Shown piece by piece: positions 3,376-42,294 of a stretch of 46,421 bases of DNA. Location: assembly GCA_963677895.2 (NCBI GenBank), contig CAXXGJ010000039.1, positions 1 to 46,421 on the forward strand, written 5' to 3'. Position numbers and translations under genes: made by a program. The notes beneath the pieces are model-generated. The model made no database searches. It was not told where the DNA came from and saw only the letters and a list, made by a program, of their open reading frames with translations. The DNA is from Treponemataceae bacterium (GTDB lineage: Bacteria; Spirochaetota; Spirochaetia; Treponematales; Rectinemataceae). Numbering within the stretch: position 1 is the stretch's first letter; every line of letters starts with the position of its first letter.

Positions 3376-3500
3376 ATCTAACAAATGCTTCAACCCTATA
3401 ACGCCTTTTGTCATGGTTTTTGCTAGAAGATGACGCAAAAACCACGCCAATCCTTCGCTTCGCTCAGGAACAGGCGTTAAGGGTTAAGCCAATGTTATGC
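3376..3500 (+). repeat. attC site
   Basis: ATCTAAC...GTTATGC. Confidence 0.95.
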
Positions 3501-3565
3501 GGACTCGCGCATTCGCGCGAGCTAAGTTATTATAATAGAAATATATAAAAAGTATAATGTTATCC

Positions 3566-3594
3566 TTGACATTACACAGCATAATGTGTAGACT
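3566..3594 (+). promoter_or_regulatory. vapBC promoter with palindromic operator
   Basis: TTGACA-17-TAGACT; TACACA-6-TGTGTA inverted repeat in the spacer. Confidence 0.75.
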
Positions 3595-3614
3595 ATAAAC
3601 ATAAGGAGGACATT

Positions 3615-3812
3615 ATGGCTACAAACCTTGCTATAGATGATAGATTACTCACCAAAGCGCTTGAAATTGGTGGTTATAAATCAAAAAAGGACACTGTTAA
3701 CGCTGCACTTGATGAATTTATCAAAAGAAGAAAAGCAAAAGAGCTTATAGATATATTTGGTACAATAGAATATGACGCTTCTTATGATTATAAGAAAATG
3801 AGATCTAGATGA
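3615..3812 (+). CDS. vapB: VapB antitoxin (copy 1)
   Basis: MATNLAIDDRLL...KKDTVNAALDEFI; AGGAGG RBS; overlaps vapC. Confidence 0.9.
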   Translation: MATNLAIDDRLLTKALEIGGYKSKKDTVNAALDEFIKRRKAKELIDIFGTIEYDASYDYKKMRSR

Positions 3813-4222
3813 AACGAGTATTAGTAGATACTTCAGTATGGTCTCTTGCACTAAGAAAAAAGGAAAGAACTGAAGTAGAACAAAAGATAGTAAGTCATCT
3901 ATCAAAATTGATAAGTAACCTTACTGTTGTTCTTATAGGTCCAATAAGGCAGGAAATTCTATCAGGAATCTCAACGAAAGAACGATTTGAAGTACTTAAA
4001 GAAAAGATATCAATATTTGATGATCATACAATACATACACATGATTATGAACTTGCTGCAGAATACTTTAATGAGTGTAGAAAACATGGGATACAAGGAT
4101 CTCATATAGATTACCTAATATGCTCAGTTGCCACAAATAATGATATGTCAATATTTACATTGGATAATGATTTTCAGCTCTATAAAAAGCATATAAGAAT
4201 TAAGCTAGAAAAATACGCATAA
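3809..4222 (+). CDS. vapC: VapC PIN-domain toxin (copy 1)
   Basis: VLVDTSVW, E, D and TLDNDF PIN acidic residues. Confidence 0.92.
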   Translation: MKRVLVDTSVWSLALRKKERTEVEQKIVSHLSKLISNLTVVLIGPIRQEILSGISTKERFEVLKEKISIFDDHTIHTHDYELAAEYFNECRKHGIQGSHIDYLICSVATNNDMSIFTLDNDFQLYKKHIRIKLEKYA

Positions 4223-4341
4223 CAAAAGCTTCAACCCTATAACGCCTTTTGTCATGGTTTTTGCTAGAAGATAACGCAAAAACCACGCCAATCCTTCGCT
4301 TCGCTCAGGAACAGGCGTTAAGGGTTAAGCCAATGTTAGAT
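4217..4341 (+). repeat. attC site
   Basis: GCATAAC...GTTAGAT. Confidence 0.95.
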
Positions 4342-5110: not shown

Positions 5111-5235
5111 ATCTAACAAATGCTTCAACCCTATAACGCCCTTTGTCATGGTTCTTGCGAAAAGATTACGCAAGAACCACGCCAATCCTTCGCTTCGCTC
5201 AGGAACAGGCGTTAAGGGTTAAGCCAATGTTAGAA
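5111..5235 (+). repeat. attC site
   Basis: ATCTAAC...GTTAGAA. Confidence 0.95.
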
Positions 5236-5290
5236 TTATTAAGCAATCCTGGAAATAGTTAAGCAAAAAATTGCACTATGAGGAGATTCT

Positions 5291-5773
5291 ATGAAAGTAG
5301 TTGCGATAAATGGAAGCCCTAAAAAAGAGGGTAATACATATCATGCCATTAAGCTTGTAACCGAACAGCTTGAAATACAAAATATTGAAATAGAGATTAT
5401 TCATATTGGGAATAAGGTAATACGTGGATGTATGGGCTGTGGCCAATGTGCAAAACAAAAAAATGAAAAGTGTATCTATTCGAATGATGAAGTAAATGAA
5501 TGTATTCAAAAGATGAAGACTGCAGATGGAATCATATTAGGATCTCCAGTTTACTTTTCTGGAATTACAGGAACGATGAAATCATTTTTAGATAGGGCCT
5601 TTTATGTTGCAGGTTCAAACGATAATCTGTTTCGGTATAAAGTAGGAGTTAGTGTAATAGCAGATCGAAGAGCAGGAGCAGTAGTAGCATATAGCCAATT
5701 AAACAACTATATAAATTATGCTGAAATGTTCATGCCAAGTTCAAATTATTGGAATGTTACATTTGGTACAATG
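5291..5773 (+). pseudogene. Flavodoxin-family iron-sulfur flavoprotein truncated by IS66
   Basis: INGSPKKEGNT, CMGCGQC, GSPVYF; interrupted at 5774 by IS end. Confidence 0.85.
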
Positions 5774-5846
5774 GTAAGCGTCCAATTCTCCACATGCTGA
5801 CAGTATTGTAAATTCGATTATCCTTCTCGCAAGGGAGGGATCATCA

Positions 5847-6190
5847 ATGTACCTGAAAAAGGATCGGACCATTTACCTCGTCGCCGGGATTACCGATATG
5901 CGAAAACAAATCAATGGACTTTCGGCAATCGCGCAAGACAAGCAACCAGAAGAAGTCTTCTCAGGGTCGTACTTTGTATTTCTCGGGAAGACAAGAAAAG
6001 TAATGAAGATTCTTTACTGGACAAAAGTGGTTTCTGCATGTGGATCAAAAGACTCGAAGAAGAAACCTTTCCCTGGACGCGAAAACAGAAGGGTGTTATA
6101 GAAATCGAACGTGATAAATTCAAGCTTCTTATAAAGGGAATCGACATATTTAGAGAACATCGAAAGCTCGAATATTCTGCGGTAGCATAG
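5847..6190 (+). CDS. tnpB: IS66 accessory protein TnpB, frameshifted ~6020
   Basis: TDMRKQINGL...KILYW then, in shifted frame, DKSGFCMWIKRLEEETFPW to TAG 6190. Confidence 0.85.
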
Positions 6191-6236
6191 GCGATTTCAG
6201 GCTGCAAATAGGGCATTTCATGCTATACTACAGTGC

Positions 6237-7817
6237 ATGGTGAGCGTGCTAGAAAACCTTCCTGACGACGTGGCTAGTCTCAAGAAACTGGTCAGGGAAA
6301 TGGCGAAAGAACATACGAAGGAAGTCCATGAACTGCAGAGCAGGCTCTCCCTTGAACAGGAAAAGTACGCCGCATTACAGCGCCTGATATTTGGACCAAA
6401 GAGCGAGAAACACCAAAAAGAGAATCCTAAACAGGATCTGCTGTTCAACGAAGCCGAAACGTTCTTCAATGTCCCCGATCGAAAACCAGCCACGATAATG
6501 GTTAACGCTCATGAGCGAAAGAAATCGGGAAGGAAACATTTCCCGGATACGCTCGAACGAAATGAAATCGTGCATGAAATGAGCAGGGAACAACGCACCT
6601 GCCCGTCCTGTGGTTCTTTACGGCCGGAAATCGGTGAAGAGCGTACGGAAGAATTGAGGCTCATTCCCGCCAAGGCAGTGATCGACGTTCATGTCATAAA
6701 GAAATACGGGCCTTGTCCCTGCAAAGAATGCACGGGCACCGAAAAGACTCCGATTATTCAGGCTCCAGGACCTGCAAAGATTGTTCCCGGTTCGAGATTC
6801 TCGAACGGAACGATCGCCTTCTTCCTGACGAGTAAGTTTGTCGACGCCCAGCCCTTCTACCGGATGGAAGGAATCCTTTCCCGCTGGGGCGTAGACACGG
6901 GGCGTTCAACCTTGTGTTCCCTTGCCATGAACGCTGGCCGTGCAGTGGGCGATCTTGTCCAGGCGATCAGGGATGACATAAAAGTATCGCCCGTGATCGG
7001 GATGGATGAAACACCATTACAGGTACTGCACGAAAAGAATCGAAGCGCGACGGCGAAGTCGTATATGTGGGTAGCGTCGGGATTCAAGGATACCAAGCGG
7101 CTTTTGTTTTTTCACTACCACCCGACAAGATCTAGCACTGTGCCAACTGAATTTCTAAAGGGCTATTCAGGCTATCTTCAAACGGACGGCTATTCAGGGT
7201 ATTTGCCGATAGGCGAAGCTCCGGGAATCGTCCATGTGGGCTGTATGGCGCATATCCGAAGGAAGTTCTACGACGCGGACAAAATCGCAGGCGGTTCAGG
7301 AGACGCTGCTGATATGCTCTCGATGATCGGAGCGTTCTACCATAACGAAGCGCTTCTACGACAACGGTATGAGAGCAAGGCGCTCGATGAAGCTTCATTC
7401 CTTGCAGAACGGAAACTGCTGCAAGAGCCACAGCTTACGGCGATCTATGAGTGGCTCACCTCACGAAGCCTAAGCGTAGCGCCTTCGAGCAGTCTGGGAA
7501 AGGCGATTTCCTATGCACTGGGGCAATGGGAGCGCGCGATTCGCTATCTTGATCATGTGCTTTTGACGCCTGACAACAATGTCGTCGAGAACGCGATCCG
7601 GCCTTTTGTCCTAGGCAGAAAGAATTGGCTTTTTTCGAACACACCGTCAGGAGCTCATACGAGCGCGGGACTTTACAGCCTTATAGAAACGGCAAAGGTC
7701 AATGGGCATGAGCCGTATAAATATCTTTGTTACCTATTCGATATGCTTCCAAGGGCAACGACGCTTGATGAGAAGCTTGCGCTCCTTCCGTACCGGCTTG
7801 ATCCTGCTACTTATTAA
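6237..7817 (+). CDS. tnpC: IS66 DDE transposase TnpC
   Basis: FGPKSE, CPSCG zinc finger, MDET, QTDGY, CMAHIRRKF, DNNVVENAIRP, SLIETAK. Confidence 0.95.
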   Translation: MVSVLENLPDDVASLKKLVREMAKEHTKEVHELQSRLSLEQEKYAALQRLIFGPKSEKHQKENPKQDLLFNEAETFFNVPDRKPATIMVNAHERKKSGRKHFPDTLERNEIVHEMSREQRTCPSCGSLRPEIGEERTEELRLIPAKAVIDVHVIKKYGPCPCKECTGTEKTPIIQAPGPAKIVPGSRFSNGTIAFFLTSKFVDAQPFYRMEGILSRWGVDTGRSTLCSLAMNAGRAVGDLVQAIRDDIKVSPVIGMDETPLQVLHEKNRSATAKSYMWVASGFKDTKRLLFFHYHPTRSSTVPTEFLKGYSGYLQTDGYSGYLPIGEAPGIVHVGCMAHIRRKFYDADKIAGGSGDAADMLSMIGAFYHNEALLRQRYESKALDEASFLAERKLLQEPQLTAIYEWLTSRSLSVAPSSSLGKAISYALGQWERAIRYLDHVLLTPDNNVVENAIRPFVLGRKNWLFSNTPSGAHTSAGLYSLIETAKVNGHEPYKYLCYLFDMLPRATTLDEKLALLPYRLDPATY

Positions 7818-7851
7818 TCTCTGGTCAAGACGGGGAGAATTGGACGCTTAC

Positions 7852-7881
7852 CAGGCGTTAAGGGTTAAGCCAATGTTAGAT
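7852..7881 (+). repeat. Truncated attC (right arm only)
   Basis: CAGGCGTTAAGGGTTAAGCCAATGTTAGAT directly after the IS66 end. Confidence 0.9.
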
Positions 7882-16643: not shown

Positions 16644-17429
16644 ATGATAGATACTTCTATTGCTGATAGAATATTCAAAGCTAGAGAAAGAATAGTAGAG
16701 GGTTTTGATTCTGAAAACTGGGAGGAGTTAGGATTATTAACTGGTGAAAGGGATATTATTAATCGTCATCCAAGGTTACTTAGAAGTTTATTATGGAATG
16801 ATGAAGATTATTCTGGCAATGTTTTAACTGTTATTAGAAAAATTGTTGAAAAGAATCCAACGACATTAGCTTTGATTGAGGAATACTTAGATAGAAACTT
16901 TGAACAAGATTCACAGTACATTTCTGCAAAACCAGCTGAAAGAAAAATTACATTTTCTCCTTATGTTTTTGATGTTCCAGATTGTTATGTAGAAATTGAT
17001 CTTGTATCAATAATGATGCCATTTTCTAAAGAATTTGATGAAATAAATACAACTATTAAATCTGCTTCACAGAGGTGTGGGCTTCGTTGTTTACGAACAG
17101 ATGATATTTGGGAAGAATCAACTATAATTCAAGATATATTTAATTTAATATTTCGATCACAAATTGTTATAGTTGATTTTACTGGTAAAAATGCAAATGT
17201 GATGTATGAGACAGGTATTGCTCATACACTTGGGAAACATGTGATTCCTATTTCACAGAGTATGGATGATGTTCCTTTTGATATGCGGCATCATAGAGTA
17301 TTGAGATACCTAAATAATTCAGAAGGATTAAAAAAGCTTAATGATGATTTATATGCAAAAATTAGTCAATTTTCCATTCATGGTGAAAAAAAAGAAGATG
17401 ATGTTCCATTTAGTGATGTGCCATTTTAA
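16644..17429 (+). CDS. Protein with C-terminal nucleoside 2-deoxyribosyltransferase/TIR-like domain and AbiJ-like N-terminus
   Basis: MMPF...RTDD...IVDFTGKNANVMYETGIAH; N-terminal HPRLLRSL.W.DEDY. Confidence 0.65.
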   Translation: MIDTSIADRIFKARERIVEGFDSENWEELGLLTGERDIINRHPRLLRSLLWNDEDYSGNVLTVIRKIVEKNPTTLALIEEYLDRNFEQDSQYISAKPAERKITFSPYVFDVPDCYVEIDLVSIMMPFSKEFDEINTTIKSASQRCGLRCLRTDDIWEESTIIQDIFNLIFRSQIVIVDFTGKNANVMYETGIAHTLGKHVIPISQSMDDVPFDMRHHRVLRYLNNSEGLKKLNDDLYAKISQFSIHGEKKEDDVPFSDVPF

Positions 17430-17716: not shown

Positions 17717-18373
17717 ATGAGAAAATTTAAACAAAGATTAAGGTATAATAAAGTAATTGCTGAGAGAGTGATCGCATTACACAAGAATTATGAATTAGAA
17801 ACGAATGTGATAACAAACCATGAAGAAAGGCAAGAAAGTATTATTACAATTGGCATGACAATAATTACTGCTATGTCATTTGTTTCGTTTGATAAGAAAA
17901 GTTCTATACTTAGCATGCTTGTAATAGTATCAATTTTATGGCTGATATCATATTTTTCTAATCATGCATTTTCAATATTTACACATGGAATGTATAGAAA
18001 GAGTATTGAAAAAAAAATAAATAGACTTAGCAAATATAAAATATGTGAATGGGAATATGTTTATACAAATTATTATCAAAAAAATCCATTTCTATATATT
18101 ATGTTATTTTTTGCTTCTCTTATTGGGGTAATTGAATCTGGTATTTCTTTATTAATTATCGTTGATAATTTAGGGTATAAGTTTATTTATAATTTTATTC
18201 CATTTGTAATATCCGGATTATTAATGATAGGAATACTATACATTATTATAAAAATACTACTTAAAAATGTAAGAAAAATATGCGACGAAAGAAATATTAA
18301 GAAAGGTGATCTACTATTAATAAATAAGAAAAATAAAGAAAAGGAAAATCTAACAAATGCTTCAACCCTATAA
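17717..18373 (+). CDS. Hypothetical membrane protein (~4 TM)
   Basis: GAGGAG RBS, hydrophobic segments; stop codon lies inside the attC. Confidence 0.7.
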   Translation: MRKFKQRLRYNKVIAERVIALHKNYELETNVITNHEERQESIITIGMTIITAMSFVSFDKKSSILSMLVIVSILWLISYFSNHAFSIFTHGMYRKSIEKKINRLSKYKICEWEYVYTNYYQKNPFLYIMLFFASLIGVIESGISLLIIVDNLGYKFIYNFIPFVISGLLMIGILYIIIKILLKNVRKICDERNIKKGDLLLINKKNKEKENLTNASTL

Positions 18374-18472
18374 CGCCTTTTGTCATGGTTTTTGCTAGAA
18401 GATGACGCAAAAACCATGCCAATCCTTCGCTACGCTCAGGAACAGGCGTTAAGGGTTAAGCCAATGTTAGAA
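18348..18472 (+). repeat. attC site
   Basis: ATCTAAC...GTTAGAA. Confidence 0.95.
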
Positions 18473-18904
18473 TGACCTATGTATCGTAAGATCATTACAT
18501 AAGCTTGTTCTAAGAATTATGTAAGATCCTAAATAAGAAATAAGAAAAATAATAATTATTATCGCCTGTTAAAAAAGAGGAAACAAAGAGCTGCTCCAAG
18601 AGCGCGTTAGTGTCGATAGAATAAGGCGGTAAAGAGATTCGCTTTTTCGCAGATTTGCGATGATGTATCAAGAAGCATATGTTGAATGTAACAAGTAGTA
18701 GAAAAGCGGAATGAGATATTGAAACCTGAAGAGCTGCGAAAAAGAGAATCCAAGAGCCGCCAAAGGCAATGAGATTAAGCGCGCGAAGAGGAGCAGCATA
18801 GGAGTTTCCTCTTTTTGCTGCGTTTGTTAGGGATTCCTGGTTGGTCACTATTATATGTTAGATGGCATAAGCGAAGTGGCTTGCATCCATACATAAGAGG
18901 GCAA
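18473..18904. ncRNA. Gene-less cassette; candidate structured non-coding RNA or ssDNA element
   Basis: No + strand ORF of 60 aa or more; nested inverted repeats 18572-18816 and flanking hairpins; matched GTTAGAA/TTCTAAC ends. Confidence 0.5.
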
Positions 18905-19026
18905 TTCTAACAAATGCTTCAACCTGACTCGCGTTAGAGAAAGGATAAATAGCTGCAATGTTAACCTGATAATGCCCTGGTGGCGCAGTAGCGCACGACG
19001 GCTCGCAGGTTAAGCCAATGTTCGAT
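18905..19026 (+). repeat. attC site, second family (AACCTGACTCGCG type)
   Basis: TTCTAAC...GTTCGAT. Confidence 0.9.
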
Positions 19027-25456: not shown

Positions 25457-25581
25457 ACCTAACAAATGCTTCAACCCTATAATGCCTTTTGTCATGGTTT
25501 GTGCAGAACAACAATGCACAAACCACGCCAATCCTTCGCTTCGCTCAGGAGCAGGCGTTAAGGGTTAAGCCAATGTTAGGT
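25457..25581 (+). repeat. attC site
   Basis: ACCTAAC...GTTAGGT. Confidence 0.95.
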
Positions 25582-25613
25582 TGACGCTTCGCGCCAATAA
25601 AAGAGGTGATACC

Positions 25614-25811
25614 ATGATCAAACTTAAGCAATTCCAAAATAGGTTTGAAGCGGAATTCTTCGCTACCATCTTAGATAAAGAAAATATTCCCTACATAATC
25701 CAGTCAGATGATAGCGGAGGACAAAGACCAGCATCATATAGTATAGCTGCAACAATACTCGTTAGCGAAAAAGATTATGAACTGGCTAAATCCTTTCTTT
25801 TAGAACAATGA
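25614..25811 (+). CDS. DUF2007-like protein (copy 1)
   Basis: EAEFFATILDKENIP...VSEKDYELA; GAGGT RBS. Confidence 0.75.
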   Translation: MIKLKQFQNRFEAEFFATILDKENIPYIIQSDDSGGQRPASYSIAATILVSEKDYELAKSFLLEQ

Positions 25812-26249
25812 AAACTAAAGATATTGCTCCTTGTGGGATTAATTGTAGTCTCTGTTTAGCGTATCAAAGGGATAAGAATCATTGTAATGGATGCAATGGA
25901 TCAGATGATCATAAAGCATACCATTGTGTTGAATGTAGAATAAGGAATTGTGAAGAGAAAAAGGGAAATAAAGAACGGTTATGTAGTAAATGTAAGAAGT
26001 ATCCATGTAGAAGAATAAAGGATTTAGAAAAGAGATATACAAATAGATATAATGTGAGCATCTTATAAGAACTTTGAGGATATAAAGATATTAGGAATAA
26101 GAGAATTTATACAGAACGAAAAAGTAAAATGGCAATGTGATAAATGTGGCAAATATTTTTGCATGCATAGAGATATGTGTCTATTCTGTGGAAATCAAAA
26201 TCTAATATATATAGAGAAAAGAAATAACCTAACAAAAGCTTCAACCTGA
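25808..26249 (+). CDS. DUF3795 Cys-rich protein (copy 1), frameshift ~26063
   Basis: APCGINCSLC; the intact paralog at 41737 shows the 1-nt insertion. Confidence 0.8.
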
Positions 26250-26347
26250 CTCGCGTTTGAAAAGCGTAAATAGCTACAATGTTAACCTGATAATGCCCTG
26301 GTAGCGCAGGAGCGCACGACGGCTCGCAGGTTAAGCCAATGTTAGGA
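26227..26347 (+). repeat. attC site, second family
   Basis: ACCTAAC...GTTAGGA. Confidence 0.9.
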
Positions 26348-28469: not shown

Positions 28470-28594
28470 ACCTAACACATGCTTCAACCCTATAACGCCC
28501 TTTGTCATGGTTTTTGCGAGAAGATAACGCAAAAACCACGCCAATCCTTCGCTTCGCTCAGGAACAGGCGTTAAGGGTTAAGCCAATGTTAGAT
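28470..28594 (+). repeat. attC site
   Basis: ACCTAAC...GTTAGAT. Confidence 0.95.
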
Positions 28595-28641
28595 TGACGC
28601 TTCGCGCAGAAGAAATTTAACATAATATATAGAGGTAGTGA

Positions 28642-30027
28642 ATGAAAACATTATCAATTGGTGTTTCTATCAAGCACTCTGAGGTTACAAATAGTTATTT
28701 TTCTTCTTCATTTTCATTTCTTGATTATGATCTTGTGCTACTTGATTTCACAAATATTCTAGATGAGTACAATTCAGATTATTCCTATTCAACTTATATG
28801 GGATATAAATGTTTGTCTGATGACGATTCAGTAAAAATTAGTAATGATATAGAACGAAGAAAGATAGAGATAAAAGATATGCTACAAAAATGGGAAGAAC
28901 TTAATCGTTTTTTCTTCTATGCCAATTTATTGCTATTATGCAACCGGGAAAAAAGAACATTCTGGTACTGGAAGAAACCAAAAAACTACTCGAATAGTAA
29001 GCAAGCTAGATATAATTAAAGCGCTAAATATACAAATGAATACTATTCCGGCAACAGGAACAAATATTGAATATGAGAATGACAAGATATTTATGCCATT
29101 CTTTAAAAAGCTAAAAGAAATATTTTATTACTCAGCTTACTATGAAAGTAGTACTGGTACTTGTATTGCAAAAATTAAAGGAACCAATAAAACGGTTTCT
29201 GAGTAATACTAAACATAATAATGGTTACATTATATGCTTGCCTTCGATGTATAAAGAAAGAAACTATAAATTAAAAAGTGATTATACAAAGAACAGTATA
29301 CTATTTATCAATGCTATATTCGAGTTAATGAAAGAGCTTAATTATTCTGAAGGAGATTATTCATTACCTGATTGGGCGATAGGGTATATTTTGCCAAGCG
29401 AGAAAGAAATAAGAGAAAAAATAGAAAAGGGACAAATTAAGCTAGACTTATTATTAAGTAAACAAAGTAAACTAAAAAGACAAAAAGAAGAAATTGAATT
29501 AAGAAAAAATTTGATTTGTGGGTCAGGGAAAGCATTAGAGAATCAGTGTGTTAAAATCCTTGAAAAAATTGGATTTGAAATATGTGAAAGTGAAAATGTG
29601 AATCGAGAAGATCTTATAATAAAATGGAAGCAGATAGTATATATTATCGAAATAAAGGGGCTAACAAGTAGTGCAGCAGAAAAAAATGCTGCTCAACTAG
29701 AAAAATGGGTAAGTGAGTATCAGATAAAGCATGATATAAAAACCAAAGCCAATTTTGTTAGTAAATGCTTTTAGGAATGATCCGCTAGAAAATAGAAAAG
29801 ATCCATCTTTTCCTGACCAGATGATAAAATATTGTGTTAGCAGAGAGCATTGTCTTTTAACAACAACACAATTGCTTTGTAGTTATATAGATATAGTAGT
29901 AAATAAAAATGGATCAATTGATATGCTAGCAAAAAAAATGAATTTATGTCGTGGAATATTAGAAGACTATCAAAAATTTGAAGACTATATAACAATTGAA
30001 AAGAAAAGTGAAATAAAAGAAACCTGA
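28642..30027 (+). CDS. Protein with C-terminal restriction-endonuclease-like domain, split into four frames
   Basis: Overlapping ORFs 28642, 28919, 29142 and 29755; LE...GF...REDLII...IEIKG...AQLEKW motif. Confidence 0.65.
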
Positions 30028-31099
30028 ATTCAAGGTCGAAGTGCAACGGAGAGGCGACGTTGTAGAATAACTCGAAAGGGGTTTTATAACCATGCCTCTT
30101 ACGGGGTCTCGTATTGAGTTTATAGGCAATACTGTCACATTCAGTCTGGGTAACACGTTTCATACAGGATCCTTTAGGAAGATATTGGCGAATGAGGCCA
30201 TTCGTGTTTTCATTGGTTCCTCGTTCCCATGAATGGTAAGGATTAGCGAAGTAGCAGGTAACAGGGAAGAGATATTCGAGATCTTTATAAGCATGGAACT
30301 CGGTACCATTATCAAAAGTGATTGAAACGAATTTCTTTCCGTGTTCACGAATTGCGGCAACACAAGCAGCATTAACTTGGAGCGTCGTTCTCGCTTTAAC
30401 CTTTTTGATAATAAGGAAGCCGGTTTTACGCTCAACTAAGGTAACAATACAATGGTGGCGATCCTTACCCATAACAGTATCGCCTTCCCAGTGGCCCAAG
30501 GAAGCTCGAGAATCAATTTCGAAAGGGCGATCGGCGATCATACGCTTTCCAGGTAAGACACCGCGGGAATCATGCGAGTTGTAGCGTTTACGCCGGCGCT
30601 TAGGGACGATACGAAGATGCTTAAAGAGCGTTCCTCCTTTCTTTTTATCATAGAGCAGGTATAAGTATATGGTTTCATGACTTATAGAAAAGCCAAAGCA
30701 CTCTTTGATGATATTTGAAGCTTGTTCCGGGCTGTAGTCAGCTTTGATAAGGAGCAGAACAATACGCCATTGATCAGGAGAGAATTGAGAACCTCGTCGA
30801 TTACGTTTTCGTCGAGCCGTAGCGTAACTGTGAGCGATTTCAGGAGAATAGGTATTGAGCTTAGGTCTTCTGTTTCGGTGTAATTCACGGCATATAGTAG
30901 ATTTATCTCTACCAAGCTCTTTAGCAATAGTACTAAGAGAGCAGTGGGTTCGCAAAAGGGCGTGAATAGTGTATCGTTCTTGCTGGGAGAGTTGCTGATA
31001 GCTCAACGGTGGATTCCTTTTCTTGGCAGAATGAGGGTGCACTTAGTATCGTGACTCTCCCTCTTTTCGCCTACACCGTTGCACTTACTATTTGAACCC
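30026..31099 (-). mobile_element. IS30-family insertion sequence
   Basis: Imperfect 24-bp IRs 30026-30049 / 31076-31099 sharing AAGTGCAACGG; 9-bp direct repeat AAGAAACCT at 30017-30025 and 31100-31108. Confidence 0.93.
30030..31006 (-). CDS. IS30-family transposase
   Basis: HTH (LGRDKSTICRELHRN), GHWEGDT, TFDNGTEF, PYHSWERGTNENTNGLIRQYLPKG; likely TTG start at 31006; 3' end approximate. Confidence 0.93.
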
Positions 31100-31104
31100 A
31101 AGAA

Positions 31105-31227
31105 ACCTAACAACTGCTTCAACCTTATAAATCCTTTGTCATGGTTTGTGCAGAAATCCCAAGTACAAACCACGCCAAGCCTTCGCTTCGCTCAGGCGCG
31201 GATTTAAAGGTTAAGCCAATGTTAGGA
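31105..31227 (+). repeat. attC site
   Basis: ACCTAAC...GTTAGGA. Confidence 0.95.
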
Positions 31228-33175: not shown

Positions 33176-33299
33176 ACCCAACACATGCTTCAACCTTATA
33201 AATCCTTTGTCATGGTTTGTGCAGAAATCCCATGCACAAACCACGCCAAGCCTTCGCAGTAGCTCAGGCGCGGATTTAAAGGTTAAGCCAATGTTATGC
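33176..33299 (+). repeat. attC site
   Basis: ACCCAAC...GTTATGC. Confidence 0.95.
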
Positions 33300-33414
33300 G
33301 GACTCGCGCATTCGCGCGAGCTAAGTTATTATAATAGAAGTATATAAAAAAGTATAATGTTGTCCTTGACATTACACAATATAATGTGTAAGCTATAAAC
33401 ATAAGGAGGACATT

Positions 33415-33612
33415 ATGGCTACAAACCTCGCTATAGATGATAGATTGCTCACCAAAGCACTTGAAATTGGCGGTTATAAATCAAAAAAGGACACTGTTAA
33501 TGCTGCACTTGATGAATTTATCAAAAGAAGAAAAGCAAAAGAGCTAATAGATATTTTTGGTACAATAGAATATGACGCTTCTTATGATTACAAGAAAATG
33601 AGATCAAGATGA
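33415..33612 (+). CDS. vapB: VapB antitoxin (copy 2)
   Basis: Protein identical to 3615..3812. Confidence 0.9.
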   Translation: MATNLAIDDRLLTKALEIGGYKSKKDTVNAALDEFIKRRKAKELIDIFGTIEYDASYDYKKMRSR

Positions 33613-34022
33613 AACGAGTATTAGTAGATACTTCGGTATGGTCTCTTGCACTAAGAAAAAAGGAAAGAACTGAGGAAGAACAAAAGATAGTAAGTCATCT
33701 ATCAAAATTGATAAGTAACCTTACTGTTGTTCTTATAGGTCCAATACGACAAGAAATTTTATCAGGAATCTCAACGAAAGAACGATTTGAAGTACTTAAA
33801 GAAAAGATATCAATATTCGATGATCATACAATACATACCCATGATTATGAACTTGCTGCAGAATACTTTAATGAATGTAGAAAACATGGGATACAAGGAT
33901 CTCATATAGATTACCTAATATGCTCAGTTGCCACAAATAATGATATGTCAATATTTACATTGGATAATGATTTTCAGCTCTATAAAAAGCATATAAGAAT
34001 TAAGCTAGAAAAATACGCATAA
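33609..34022 (+). CDS. vapC: VapC PIN toxin (copy 2)
   Basis: One visible amino-acid difference (V/E) from 3809..4222. Confidence 0.92.
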   Translation: MKRVLVDTSVWSLALRKKERTEEEQKIVSHLSKLISNLTVVLIGPIRQEILSGISTKERFEVLKEKISIFDDHTIHTHDYELAAEYFNECRKHGIQGSHIDYLICSVATNNDMSIFTLDNDFQLYKKHIRIKLEKYA

Positions 34023-34141
34023 CAAAAGCTTCAACCCTATAACGCCTTTTGTCGTGGTTTTTGCGAGAAGATGACGCAAAAACCACGCCAATCCTTCGCT
34101 TCGCTCAGGAACAGGCGTTAAGGGTTAAGCCAATGTTAGAA
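34017..34141 (+). repeat. attC site
   Basis: GCATAAC...GTTAGAA. Confidence 0.95.
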
Positions 34142-38429: not shown

Positions 38430-39497
38430 ATGTCAACAGAAAAAGAAGCAACTATCAAGGTAGCATCTAAGAAGCTCAATTGGCCATTTCCTAGAAGTAC
38501 GCTTGAATCAGCCTTAAGAATACCTATGGCGCTAAAAGAATATAATGGTGGTAACCCATGGGAGCCGGAAGAACTAAGAAAGGCTATAGGTGTTGGCTCT
38601 GGTGGGAATACCTATTTTTACCTTTTAGCTGCATCTAGGGAATATGGATTAACTACTGGTACAAATAAAAGTGAAAAAATAGAATTAACAGATTTAGGAA
38701 GAGAAATTGCATATGCTCCCGATCCGGATACAGAAAAAAACTTAAAAATTAAAGCATTCATTTATAACGAAATATTTAAAAAAGTACTTGAATATTATAA
38801 AGGTAGTAATTTACCTGAAATGAAATACCTCGGGAATACATTACATAAACAATTCGGTCTCGAATCCGGGACTCATGAAGAATTCTCAAAGACATTTCGA
38901 GAAAATTGTCAATATTTAGGATTAACATCAGGCTTATTGCCTCAAGCGGATGGAAGTGAAAAAAGCTTACTAACCCATAAAACAGCTCCAGATACAATCT
39001 TGCTTGCAGAACCCGAGGGGTCTTCAAAATTAACTGCATTTGTAATTTTACCATTTACGGAAAGAGATTCTAAACATTCACCTGGCTTTTTTGCAGAAGT
39101 ACTTCGAAGCCTAATAACTCCAGCAGCCAAAGAAGCCGATTTTAAGGTTAAAACCGCTAATAGGCAGGGTAGCGATTTGATACAATCAACTATAATAAAT
39201 GGACTAATAGAAGCAGATCTTGTTATTGCAGATCTTACAGAACATAATCCTAATGTTCTATTTGAACTCGGTATGAGAATGGCAGTAGATAAACCTGTTG
39301 TATTGATTAAAGCATTTAGCACGGGTCCTCTTTTTGATATTGATAATCTTCTTAGAGTTTTCGAGTATAATCCTAATCTTTGGCAAACTACGATAGAGAA
39401 AGATATGCCTGAATTGACAGAATTTATAAAAGGTGCTTGGGACAATAGAGATTCAGAAAATACATATTTGAAAATATTAAAAGGTAATAAAAAATAG
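38430..39497 (+). CDS. Winged-helix-like N-terminus fused to a nucleoside 2-deoxyribosyltransferase/TIR-like domain
   Basis: YGLT...IELTDLG; AFVILPF...ADLVIADLTEHNPNVLFELGMR. Confidence 0.65.
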   Translation: MSTEKEATIKVASKKLNWPFPRSTLESALRIPMALKEYNGGNPWEPEELRKAIGVGSGGNTYFYLLAASREYGLTTGTNKSEKIELTDLGREIAYAPDPDTEKNLKIKAFIYNEIFKKVLEYYKGSNLPEMKYLGNTLHKQFGLESGTHEEFSKTFRENCQYLGLTSGLLPQADGSEKSLLTHKTAPDTILLAEPEGSSKLTAFVILPFTERDSKHSPGFFAEVLRSLITPAAKEADFKVKTANRQGSDLIQSTIINGLIEADLVIADLTEHNPNVLFELGMRMAVDKPVVLIKAFSTGPLFDIDNLLRVFEYNPNLWQTTIEKDMPELTEFIKGAWDNRDSENTYLKILKGNKK

Positions 39498-41340: not shown

Positions 41341-41455
41341 TTCTAACACATGCTTCAACCTTATAAATCCTTTGTCATGGTTCTTGCGGGAAGATTACGC
41401 AAGAACCACGCCAAGCCCTTCGGGCACGGATTTAAAGGTTAAACGAATGTTAGGT
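41341..41455 (+). repeat. attC site
   Basis: TTCTAAC...GTTAGGT. Confidence 0.93.
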
Positions 41456-41542
41456 TGACGCCTTCGGCGCGCAAAGATACATGCTAAACTATAAAATGCA
41501 AATGTTAGATTGACGCTTCATGTTAATAAAAGAGGTGGTTAC

Positions 41543-41740
41543 ATGATCAAACTTAAGCAATTCCAAAATAGGTTTGAAGCAGAATTTTTCGCTACCATCC
41601 TGGATAAAGAGAGTATTCCCTACATCATTCAGTCAGATGATAGTGGAGGCCAAAGACCAGCATCATATAGCATAGCTGCAACGCTACTCGTTAGCGAAAA
41701 GGATTATGAGCTTGCTAAATCGTTTCTTTTAGAACAATGA
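41543..41740 (+). CDS. DUF2007-like protein (copy 2)
   Basis: Near-identical to 25614..25811. Confidence 0.75.
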   Translation: MIKLKQFQNRFEAEFFATILDKESIPYIIQSDDSGGQRPASYSIAATLLVSEKDYELAKSFLLEQ

Positions 41741-42180
41741 AAACTAAAGATATTGCTCCTTGTGGACTTAATTGCAGTCTCTGTCTAGCATATCAAAGGG
41801 ATAAGAATCATTGTAATGGATGTAATGGATCAGATGATCATAAGGCATACCATTGTATAGAATGTAGAATAAGGAATTGTGAAGAAAAAAAGGGAAATAA
41901 AAAGCTATTATGTAGTAAATGTAAGAAATATCCATGTAGAAGAATAAAGGATTTAGAAAAAAGATATACCAATAGATATAATGTGAGCATATATAAGAAT
42001 TTTGAGGATATAAAGATATTAGGAATTAGGAAATTTATAAAGAACGAAAAAGTAAAATGGCAATGTGATAAATGTGGCAAATATTTTTGCATGCATCGAG
42101 AAAAATGTCTATTTTGTGGGAATCAAAGTCTAATATATATAGAGAAAAGAAATAACCTAACAACTGCTTCAACCCTATAA
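41737..42180 (+). CDS. DUF3795 Cys-rich protein (copy 2, intact)
   Basis: APCGLNCSLC and multiple CxxC; stop inside attC. Confidence 0.82.
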   Translation: MKTKDIAPCGLNCSLCLAYQRDKNHCNGCNGSDDHKAYHCIECRIRNCEEKKGNKKLLCSKCKKYPCRRIKDLEKRYTNRYNVSIYKNFEDIKILGIRKFIKNEKVKWQCDKCGKYFCMHREKCLFCGNQSLIYIEKRNNLTTASTL

Positions 42181-42294
42181 CGCCTTTTGTCATGGTTTTT
42201 GCGAGAAGATCACGCAAAAACCACGCCAATCCCTCGCATCGTTGCTACGCAACGCCGCTCGGGCCAGGCTTTAAAGGTTAAGCCAATGTTAGAT
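42155..42294 (+). repeat. attC site (chimeric arms)
   Basis: ACCTAAC...GTTAGAT. Confidence 0.93.

Follow-up and report, generated by a model that had tools for sequence, protein, structure and literature searches.

In the window, by which we mean the whole 46,421-nt stretch of DNA that was analysed, we identified an integron cassette that encodes no protein and whose central 245 nt are predicted to fold into a long interrupted hairpin, hereafter the rod. As judged from sequence comparisons, the rod represents a real structured family, new within a type of element that is already known, and its function is a prediction. The helices and the NAAGA loops that face each other between them are under selection, and the protein-free cassette is a good candidate for a mobile functional RNA. 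The family is apparently limited to one spirochaete group and apparently undescribed.

The window is an entire contig (G000:C39) and consists of a single integron array with 48 attC right ends and 47 complete cassettes, of which the rod cassette, present once, is the 19th. Its G+C content is 33%, compared to mostly 55 to 60% in the rest of the genome. The same attC end has 142 exact matches in G001, a genome of the same genus, and the array type therefore belongs to the lineage. A search of G000 for an integron integrase of the G001 type found none; the G001 integrase, behind which that genome's rod array lies, matches TIGR02249 with 461.9 bits (cut-off, 265) and is oriented in the same direction as the cassettes. 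Together with the best solved relative of the host uL2 protein, chain 8fmw_AD of the Borrelia ribosome, this orientation points to a spirochaete. The rod cassette begins at a core site and carries its own attC, with complementary cores. Position 18911, given as the cassette end in the earlier note, proved to be the start of this attC, and the cassette extends from 18466 to 19019. The next cassette downstream, a MazE/MazF pair with its own promoter, is linked to the rod at no other locus.

Two oversized cassette intervals of the window (5229 to 7874 and 28588 to 31220) contain long ORFs (526 aa on the plus strand and 401 aa on the minus strand) and look like inserted transposases. Weak PADLOC matches to TIR effectors were obtained for 2 of the 10 proteins scanned, encoded in the window at 16644 to 17429 and 38430 to 39497 (E values of 2e-8 and 2.5e-4), and the former has an AbiJ N-terminal domain 5; both are candidate defence cassettes. 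Protein cassettes are duplicated within the array at 3494 to 4334 and 33293 to 34134 and at 25575 to 26340 and 41449 to 42287. On the plus strand, the 3′ untranslated parts of the window cassettes are 68% purine and 5% C.

The rod cassette and its predicted parts are as follows.

18348..18472, plus strand: attC of the upstream cassette, ending in the GTTAGAA core of the rod cassette
18466..19019, plus strand: whole gene-less cassette, core site to next core site, 554 bp
18466..18484, plus strand: 5′ end of the body; complementary to about 18887 to 18911 at the 3′ end, with which it pairs, lengthening the attC stem of the excised circle
18490..18528, plus strand: 5′ flanking hairpin; the divergent G001 copy also has a predicted hairpin here, with a different sequence
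18572..18816, plus strand: rod, 245 nt, conserved core of the family
18572..18584, plus strand: P1, 5′ strand, pairs with 18804 to 18816; 6 of the 10 pairs tested show double changes, with 100% of cells paired
18585..18589, plus strand: loop 1, 5′ strand, AAAGA; faces ATAGGA at 18798 to 18803 (GAAGA or AAAGA in divergent copies)
18590..18597, plus strand: P2, 5′ strand, pairs with 18790 to 18797; 2 of 8 pairs change on both sides
18598..18601, plus strand: loop 2, 5′ strand, AAGA; faces GAAGA at 18785 to 18789
18602..18608, plus strand: P3, 5′ strand, pairs with 18778 to 18784; almost invariant
18609..18624, plus strand: bubble, weakly paired and poorly conserved; faces about 18762 to 18777
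18625..18630, plus strand: P4, 5′ strand, pairs with 18756 to 18761; nearly invariant
18631..18635, plus strand: loop 3, 5′ strand, AAAGA; faces CAAGA at 18751 to 18755
18636..18652, plus strand: P5, 5′ strand, pairs with 18734 to 18750; longest helix
18653..18733, plus strand: apical domain, whose length and sequence vary from clade to clade; ends in GAAGA at 18728 to 18732
18854..18895, plus strand: 3′ flanking hairpin, loosely conserved
18905..19026, plus strand: the rod cassette's own attC; homologues have this attC type or others

All 14 stem and core strings of the earlier note lie exactly where it placed them, and the two flanking hairpins that it described both fold (−10.2 and −9.6 kcal/mol). 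The cassette body folds at −128.7 kcal/mol on the plus strand (z = −5.77) and at −116.8 kcal/mol on the minus strand (z = −7.21), energies that none of 100 shuffled sequences reached on either strand. When a 250-nt slice was taken at the same offset from all 47 cassettes, the rod gave a z score of −10.5 and the next best cassette −2.5, a contrast flattered by an offset chosen to fit the rod. A G·A mismatch within P5 (18641/18745) is a G-C pair in seven near homologues, and the pairing of the cassette ends shows one T-A to C-G double change between clades. In four representative rods, 80% of the unpaired bases are purines (293/364).

A pattern scan yielded 30 loci on metagenome contigs, eight of which are homologous, with 89 to 94% identity; two of the eight (L013 and L030) have identical sequences, and four share one assembly identifier. 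Inserted DNA interrupts two of these copies, inside the rod in L023 and in the 5′ flank in L025. Where both ends could be read, the homologue is a whole cassette between attC sites, sometimes of another attC type. When 68 further family genomes were searched with a covariance model built from this near clade (R1), three of them proved to contain divergent copies, five in all (70 to 83 bits): three in G001 and one each in G020 and G478. The divergent copies are 52 to 57% identical to the near clade, and the G020 copy is 64 to 65% identical to the G001/G478 group. The three G001 copies differ by 4 to 8%, with a tandem pair 6% apart, which suggests separate captures or old copies and not a fresh duplication. 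Neighbouring genes differ at every independent rod locus. The earlier description of the cassette as mobile is thus borne out, since the unit moves with other neighbours and other attC types and also occurs behind an integron integrase.

Other searches delimit the family. With blastn, no rod cassette was found in 60 relatives and the 68 family genomes; R1 later matched three genomes that blastn had missed, and these DNA-level negatives are therefore weak. Among 400 genomes of the phylum, blastn gave only short matches of 22 to 61 nt in 20 genomes, none confirmed by nhmmer, and the pattern matched twice with one mismatch, both times at R1-negative sites. R1 matched G478 only among 151 genomes of the order and nothing in 150 other genomes of the class. 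One pattern scan of genome contigs gave no match; another gave at least 116, of which the 80 tested with R1 were all negative. Viral scans contained no rod homologue, and blastn returned one 26-nt chance match from plasmids and none from phages. Part of the window stretch was present in 20 of 24 sequencing runs and half of the stretch in none of the 24, while three DNA sequencing runs carry variants along the rod. Because R1 lacks the divergent copies, estimates of range may be low, and the family may range more widely than the R1 picture.

G001 harbours three integrons (C1, C5, and C7), with integrases 81 to 93% identical to that of C7, and each of the three arrays has its own repeated gene-less family. 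Family B (562 bp; z = −6.0), which forms a long hairpin, occupies positions 1, 7, 11, 19, and 29 of 38 in G001:C1 (L197:14676-15237, minus strand, and four more copies). A 491-bp relative (L205:5565-6055, minus strand) at positions 2 and 20 of another array has a hairpin stem that differs in sequence and still pairs. Family C, of about 165 bp, has 11 copies in the 90 cassettes of the G001:C5 array (L203 to L205) and also occurs at L026:1875-2039; its overall fold is weak (z about −1 to 0), and it contains 31 GAAGA per kb. The first cassette after intI in G026 (L357; 428 bp) is gene-less, with 13 GAAGA and no significant fold (z = −1.2), and a 575-bp gene-less cassette at 805 on the minus strand of L203 (z = −3.9) is by eye unlike the other families.

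We evaluated covariation at 34 pairs in five helices, using 11 rods aligned with MAFFT independently of the structure. At 54 to 65% identity, 98.7% of the 374 cells are paired, compared to 36 to 52% in controls with slid partners. Double changes occur at 10 of the 34 pairs, a number reached by none of 500 shuffles; they stem from about three lineages, and the independent events are hence fewer than the cells. P3 shows no covariation because it is almost invariant. The part of P5 that MAFFT misregistered was left out of the 34; in a model-fitted alignment, which leans to the model, 9 of 17 P5 pairs show double changes. It is the pairing that homologues conserve, and not the minus-strand 112-aa ORF, whose conservation in place of the pairing the earlier note had named as a refuting outcome. 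With pairs changing on both sides and loops kept, the proposal of a structure under selection gained support.

While the stems change, the facing loops keep NAAGA or a close variant on both strands. A facing AAGA/AAGA loop between two 5-bp stems occurs at five sites in the 3.5-Mb genome, two of them in the rod cassette; in a genome-wide search for host RNAs with the same loop, the three other sites all lay inside ORFs. On the plus strand, AAGA reaches 33 to 37 per kb in rods versus 12 to 29 per kb in ordinary parts of arrays, where it is frequent on that strand anyway, which tempers the loop conservation. The pattern on each loop strand is C-NNN-GA-G, with tandem G·A pairs available to both strands. 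The bulged strand of a kink-turn of the Kt-7 type resembles this pattern, as do tandem sheared G·A loops. In contrast to a standard kink-turn, the rod loop has a bulge on both strands, which makes it two-fold symmetric, and no L7Ae family gene was found in the five host-family genomes searched (80 to 97% complete; controls positive in 7 of 14).

The cassette body was said to have no credible plus-strand ORF, and the longest one is indeed 31 aa; an ORF is conserved on neither strand across the rod homologues. A 112-aa ORF on the minus strand (18510..18848) was rejected as a gene, being open only in the window and L024 among eight bodies; neither this frame nor a 43-aa minus-strand frame discussed below has a Pfam match. 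A search of the body for the σ70 consensus found no promoter-like site. With a σ70-type matrix, the best scores in the cassettes were 5.6 to 10.9 bits compared to 15 for the neighbouring mazEF promoter; the best positions differ between clades, and no −35/−10 combination is conserved. This test covers promoters of the σ70 type, and since none is conserved, expression of the rod would depend on Pc or read-through. Terminator scoring of the cassette gave no terminator-like site. No neighbouring gene is common to the loci, which leaves the suggested antitoxin role without support. A type III antitoxin and a retron or DRT noncoding RNA were rejected for want of a fixed adjacent toxin or reverse transcriptase gene; where reverse transcriptase genes occur, they are on different contigs or distant from the rod, and searches of G020 and G478 found none.

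The plus strand of the rod folds better than the minus strand in 12 of 12 cases as DNA and in 11 of 12 as RNA, although this energy advantage is in part another expression of the purine-rich loops. In the same array, 34 of 36 attC sites have their more stable fold on the bottom strand, which is the strand that IntI recombines according to the available text of PMC8946536. This opposition argues, indirectly, that the rod favours the strand that would be transcribed over the one that recombines. The earlier note had favoured the plus strand as well; the folding energies, whose strand preference is opposite to that of attC, speak for that choice, and the G-T pairs that it cited do not, since the T at 18630 is a C in five of the seven near homologues aligned with it. 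One-sided changes pick no strand, with three pairs passing through G·U and three through A·C. One RNA run of doubtful kind contained two short contigs, from which neither transcription nor habitat follows.

The explanation that we tentatively prefer, and to which we give somewhat less than an even chance, is that a Pc-driven RNA presents repeated symmetric loops and acts in trans as a multivalent protein decoy. The cassette would be the gene of a mobile noncoding RNA. As in ordinary cassettes that lack a promoter, its plus strand would be transcribed from Pc or by read-through, most strongly once next to attI. Symmetric purine loops can stack as non-canonical purine pairs. The transcript would fold into a stiff rod whose two-fold symmetric loops stack in this way, and the three facing loops would offer repeated sites for one RNA-binding protein, probably a dimer, which the decoy would titrate in trans. 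The target might be a protein of a phage, a mobile element, or a toxin system; this is the weakest step, a role in conflict being guessed because the arrays hold toxin-antitoxin and TIR-like cassettes. A trans-acting RNA could explain together the paired helices, the symmetric loop, the lean to the plus strand, the lack of a partner gene, and the lack of an own promoter.

Array position bears on this explanation, which the first places would favour and a last place would not, and also on its rivals. In G001, three of the 33 cassettes that follow a confirmed integron integrase are rods (positions 1, 2, and 7); the rod is the first cassette after intI in G020, where its 3′ end is disrupted or cut, and the last cassette of its array in G478. 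At 15 of the 30 integrase loci inspected, at least 400 nt of the first cassette could be read; two of these cassettes were rods and four were gene-less. Compared to 4 rods in the 208 cassettes of G000 and G001, a binomial computed by hand gives about 0.03 for the rod at first position, in a sample of genomes chosen for having a rod and with a small excess. The excess at first position is suggestive only.

These positions also form part of the case for a cis-acting RNA module on the array transcript, a reading that we consider unlikely. Here, the folded, C-poor RNA or a factor loaded on its loops would alter downstream read-through, as a processive antiterminator or stabiliser, or as a silencer when first. 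Gene-less families recur at intervals in each of the three G001 arrays, and GAAGA is enriched in other gene-less cassettes (12 to 31 per kb versus 5 in coding parts). GAAGA is the loop of lambda boxB, but boxB is a terminal loop, whereas those of the rod are internal. Polarity of first cassettes is known: in the portion of PMC11511950 available, how far the second cassette is expressed depends on translation of the first. A cassette in first place that is not translated must hence have consequences for the array. On the other hand, the G478 copy has no cassette downstream, the window has a single rod in 47 cassettes, and no terminator-like site scored. Moreover, a compensated A-U to G-C change in G020 breaks the U run, so it is the pairing that is kept and not a terminator tail.

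We also consider it unlikely that the rod is a selfish fold-back DNA with no RNA role, in which self-pairing of single-stranded DNA would join the attC sites or protect the excised circle, so that excision by IntI and re-insertion at attI would become more frequent. The multiple copies would fit this reading, as would the first positions and the cassette ends, which pair and covary. In the part of PMC5737381 at hand, covariation does not separate RNA from single-stranded DNA, and selfishness is the other open explanation for noncoding cassettes in the sections available of PMC1382264. Interrupted helices would suit avoidance of SbcCD cleavage, a link that we infer from excerpts of PMC8946536. 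Self-pairing alone, however, needs no conserved loop sequence, and tandem copies 6% apart are not a fresh duplication. In addition, the better fold is on the top strand throughout (12/12 as DNA), whereas IntI uses the bottom one in the same excerpts.

In a further reading, the cassette would carry an RNA polymerase decoy like 6S RNA (RF00013), with closing arm, bubble, and inner arm mimicking an open promoter; we regard such a 6S-like decoy on a mobile cassette as highly improbable. In outline the rod resembles 6S RNA, being closed at its ends and having a bubble in the middle and an inner arm of comparable length. The bubble starts after about 36 nt and measures about 18 nt on each side, compared to 41 nt and 17 nt in Escherichia coli 6S, but in the near clade it is partly paired. 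In G000, G001, G002, G020, and G478, 6S was detected in none of the five by RF00013 or by a spirochaete model (the latter without a positive control), while 42 of 101 genomes of the class match RF00013, and the host family may have lost 6S RNA or have a very divergent one. Nevertheless, a model of 20 spirochaete 6S RNAs plus that of E. coli gives rods at most 7.8 bits, on the wrong strand; R1 gives 6S genes at most 8.2 bits and has no match in the ygfA neighbourhoods of G020 and G478; and the conserved CTTGAAC...GTTCAAG signature is absent from the rod. Membership in the 6S family was rejected, as neither RF00013 nor the spirochaete model scored. The rod also differs in its length (230 to 250 nt versus about 180), its three facing NAAGA loops, and its mobility and multiple copies.

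It is very improbable that the cassette is a promoter cassette of the kind known from Treponema and Vibrio with an incidental fold: promoter activity is common in gene-less cassettes, as far as the available text of 10.1101/2023.11.21.568050 and PMC6557892 goes, and the flanks are AT rich, but the conserved covarying part is the rod and not the flanks, and the body has no consensus site, low matrix scores, and best-scoring positions that shift from clade to clade. A minus-strand type I toxin mRNA with its ribosome site hidden by fold-back pairing, proposed from a Shine-Dalgarno-like GAGG inside P1 followed by ATG and a hydrophobic 43-aa frame (18668..18799, read from 18799 to 18668), is largely refuted and was rejected, since the frame is intact in only three of seven near-identical sequences (early stops in L008, L024, and L030; frameshift in L015) and has no Pfam match.

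A broader idea, speculative and in our view improbable, is that RNA-only cassettes form a set in the integrons of this spirochaete family, sharing one loop-binding protein and serving as phage-protein decoys or as a switch of array expression. The set as proposed comprises the rod and at least two more multicopy gene-less families, several of them GAAGA rich and repeatedly at first position. If it exists, IntI would be shuffling a class of mobile RNA genes, and the question of what purpose empty cassettes serve would be answered directly. Noncoding cassettes make up 6 to 49% of Vibrio arrays, and the choice between selfish DNA and functional or regulatory RNA has been left open since 2006 (PMC1382264, in the sections available); what has been tested since is mainly promoter activity. 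The rod family offers a structure backed by double changes, a repeated loop in which mutations can be made while the fold stays intact, and natural variants that are 54% identical, and the question is therefore directly testable: with one small set of constructs, different outcomes are expected for an RNA in trans, an RNA in cis, and a DNA fold-back. Were the rod a decoy or a defence RNA, protein-only screens of integron cassettes would miss a whole class of cargo.

A check against Rfam, proposed earlier, gave no match in the window at the gathering score and, at E values up to 10, only weak unrelated matches in the cassette; none covered the rods of four divergent loci. In Rfam 15 and the literature searched, much of it available in part, the family is undescribed, the ORF-less cassettes of Treponema being compared by description only. 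Noncoding cassettes of Vibrio superintegrons (PMC1382264; 10.1101/2023.11.21.568050) and ORF-less ones of Treponema (PMC6557892) are, as described in the text available, the closest relatives in kind: they are attC bounded and ORF-less, have been seen in first position, and are likewise conserved over their length, confined to one lineage, and often multicopy. Their function, however, is promoter activity, whereas the rod covaries, has repeated loops, and lacks a conserved promoter; a word search of the available text of the promoter papers (10.1101/2023.11.21.568050 and PMC6557892) did not find "secondary structure." A precedent for a cassette-borne RNA is sRNA-Xcc1 of Xanthomonas, known to us through its citation in PMC6557892 and 10.1101/2025.06.18.660453, a noncoding RNA that has moved between species. 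It occurs with symE, lies opposite to Pc, and is controlled by HrpG/HrpX, whereas the rod has no partner gene and is oriented with Pc. Finally, the DUF1874 motif, in the portion of PMC5737381 available, is also a covarying structure in an integron-like array that may be RNA or single-stranded DNA; that motif recurs between consecutive ORFs as attC does, whereas the rod is cargo between two ordinary attC sites.
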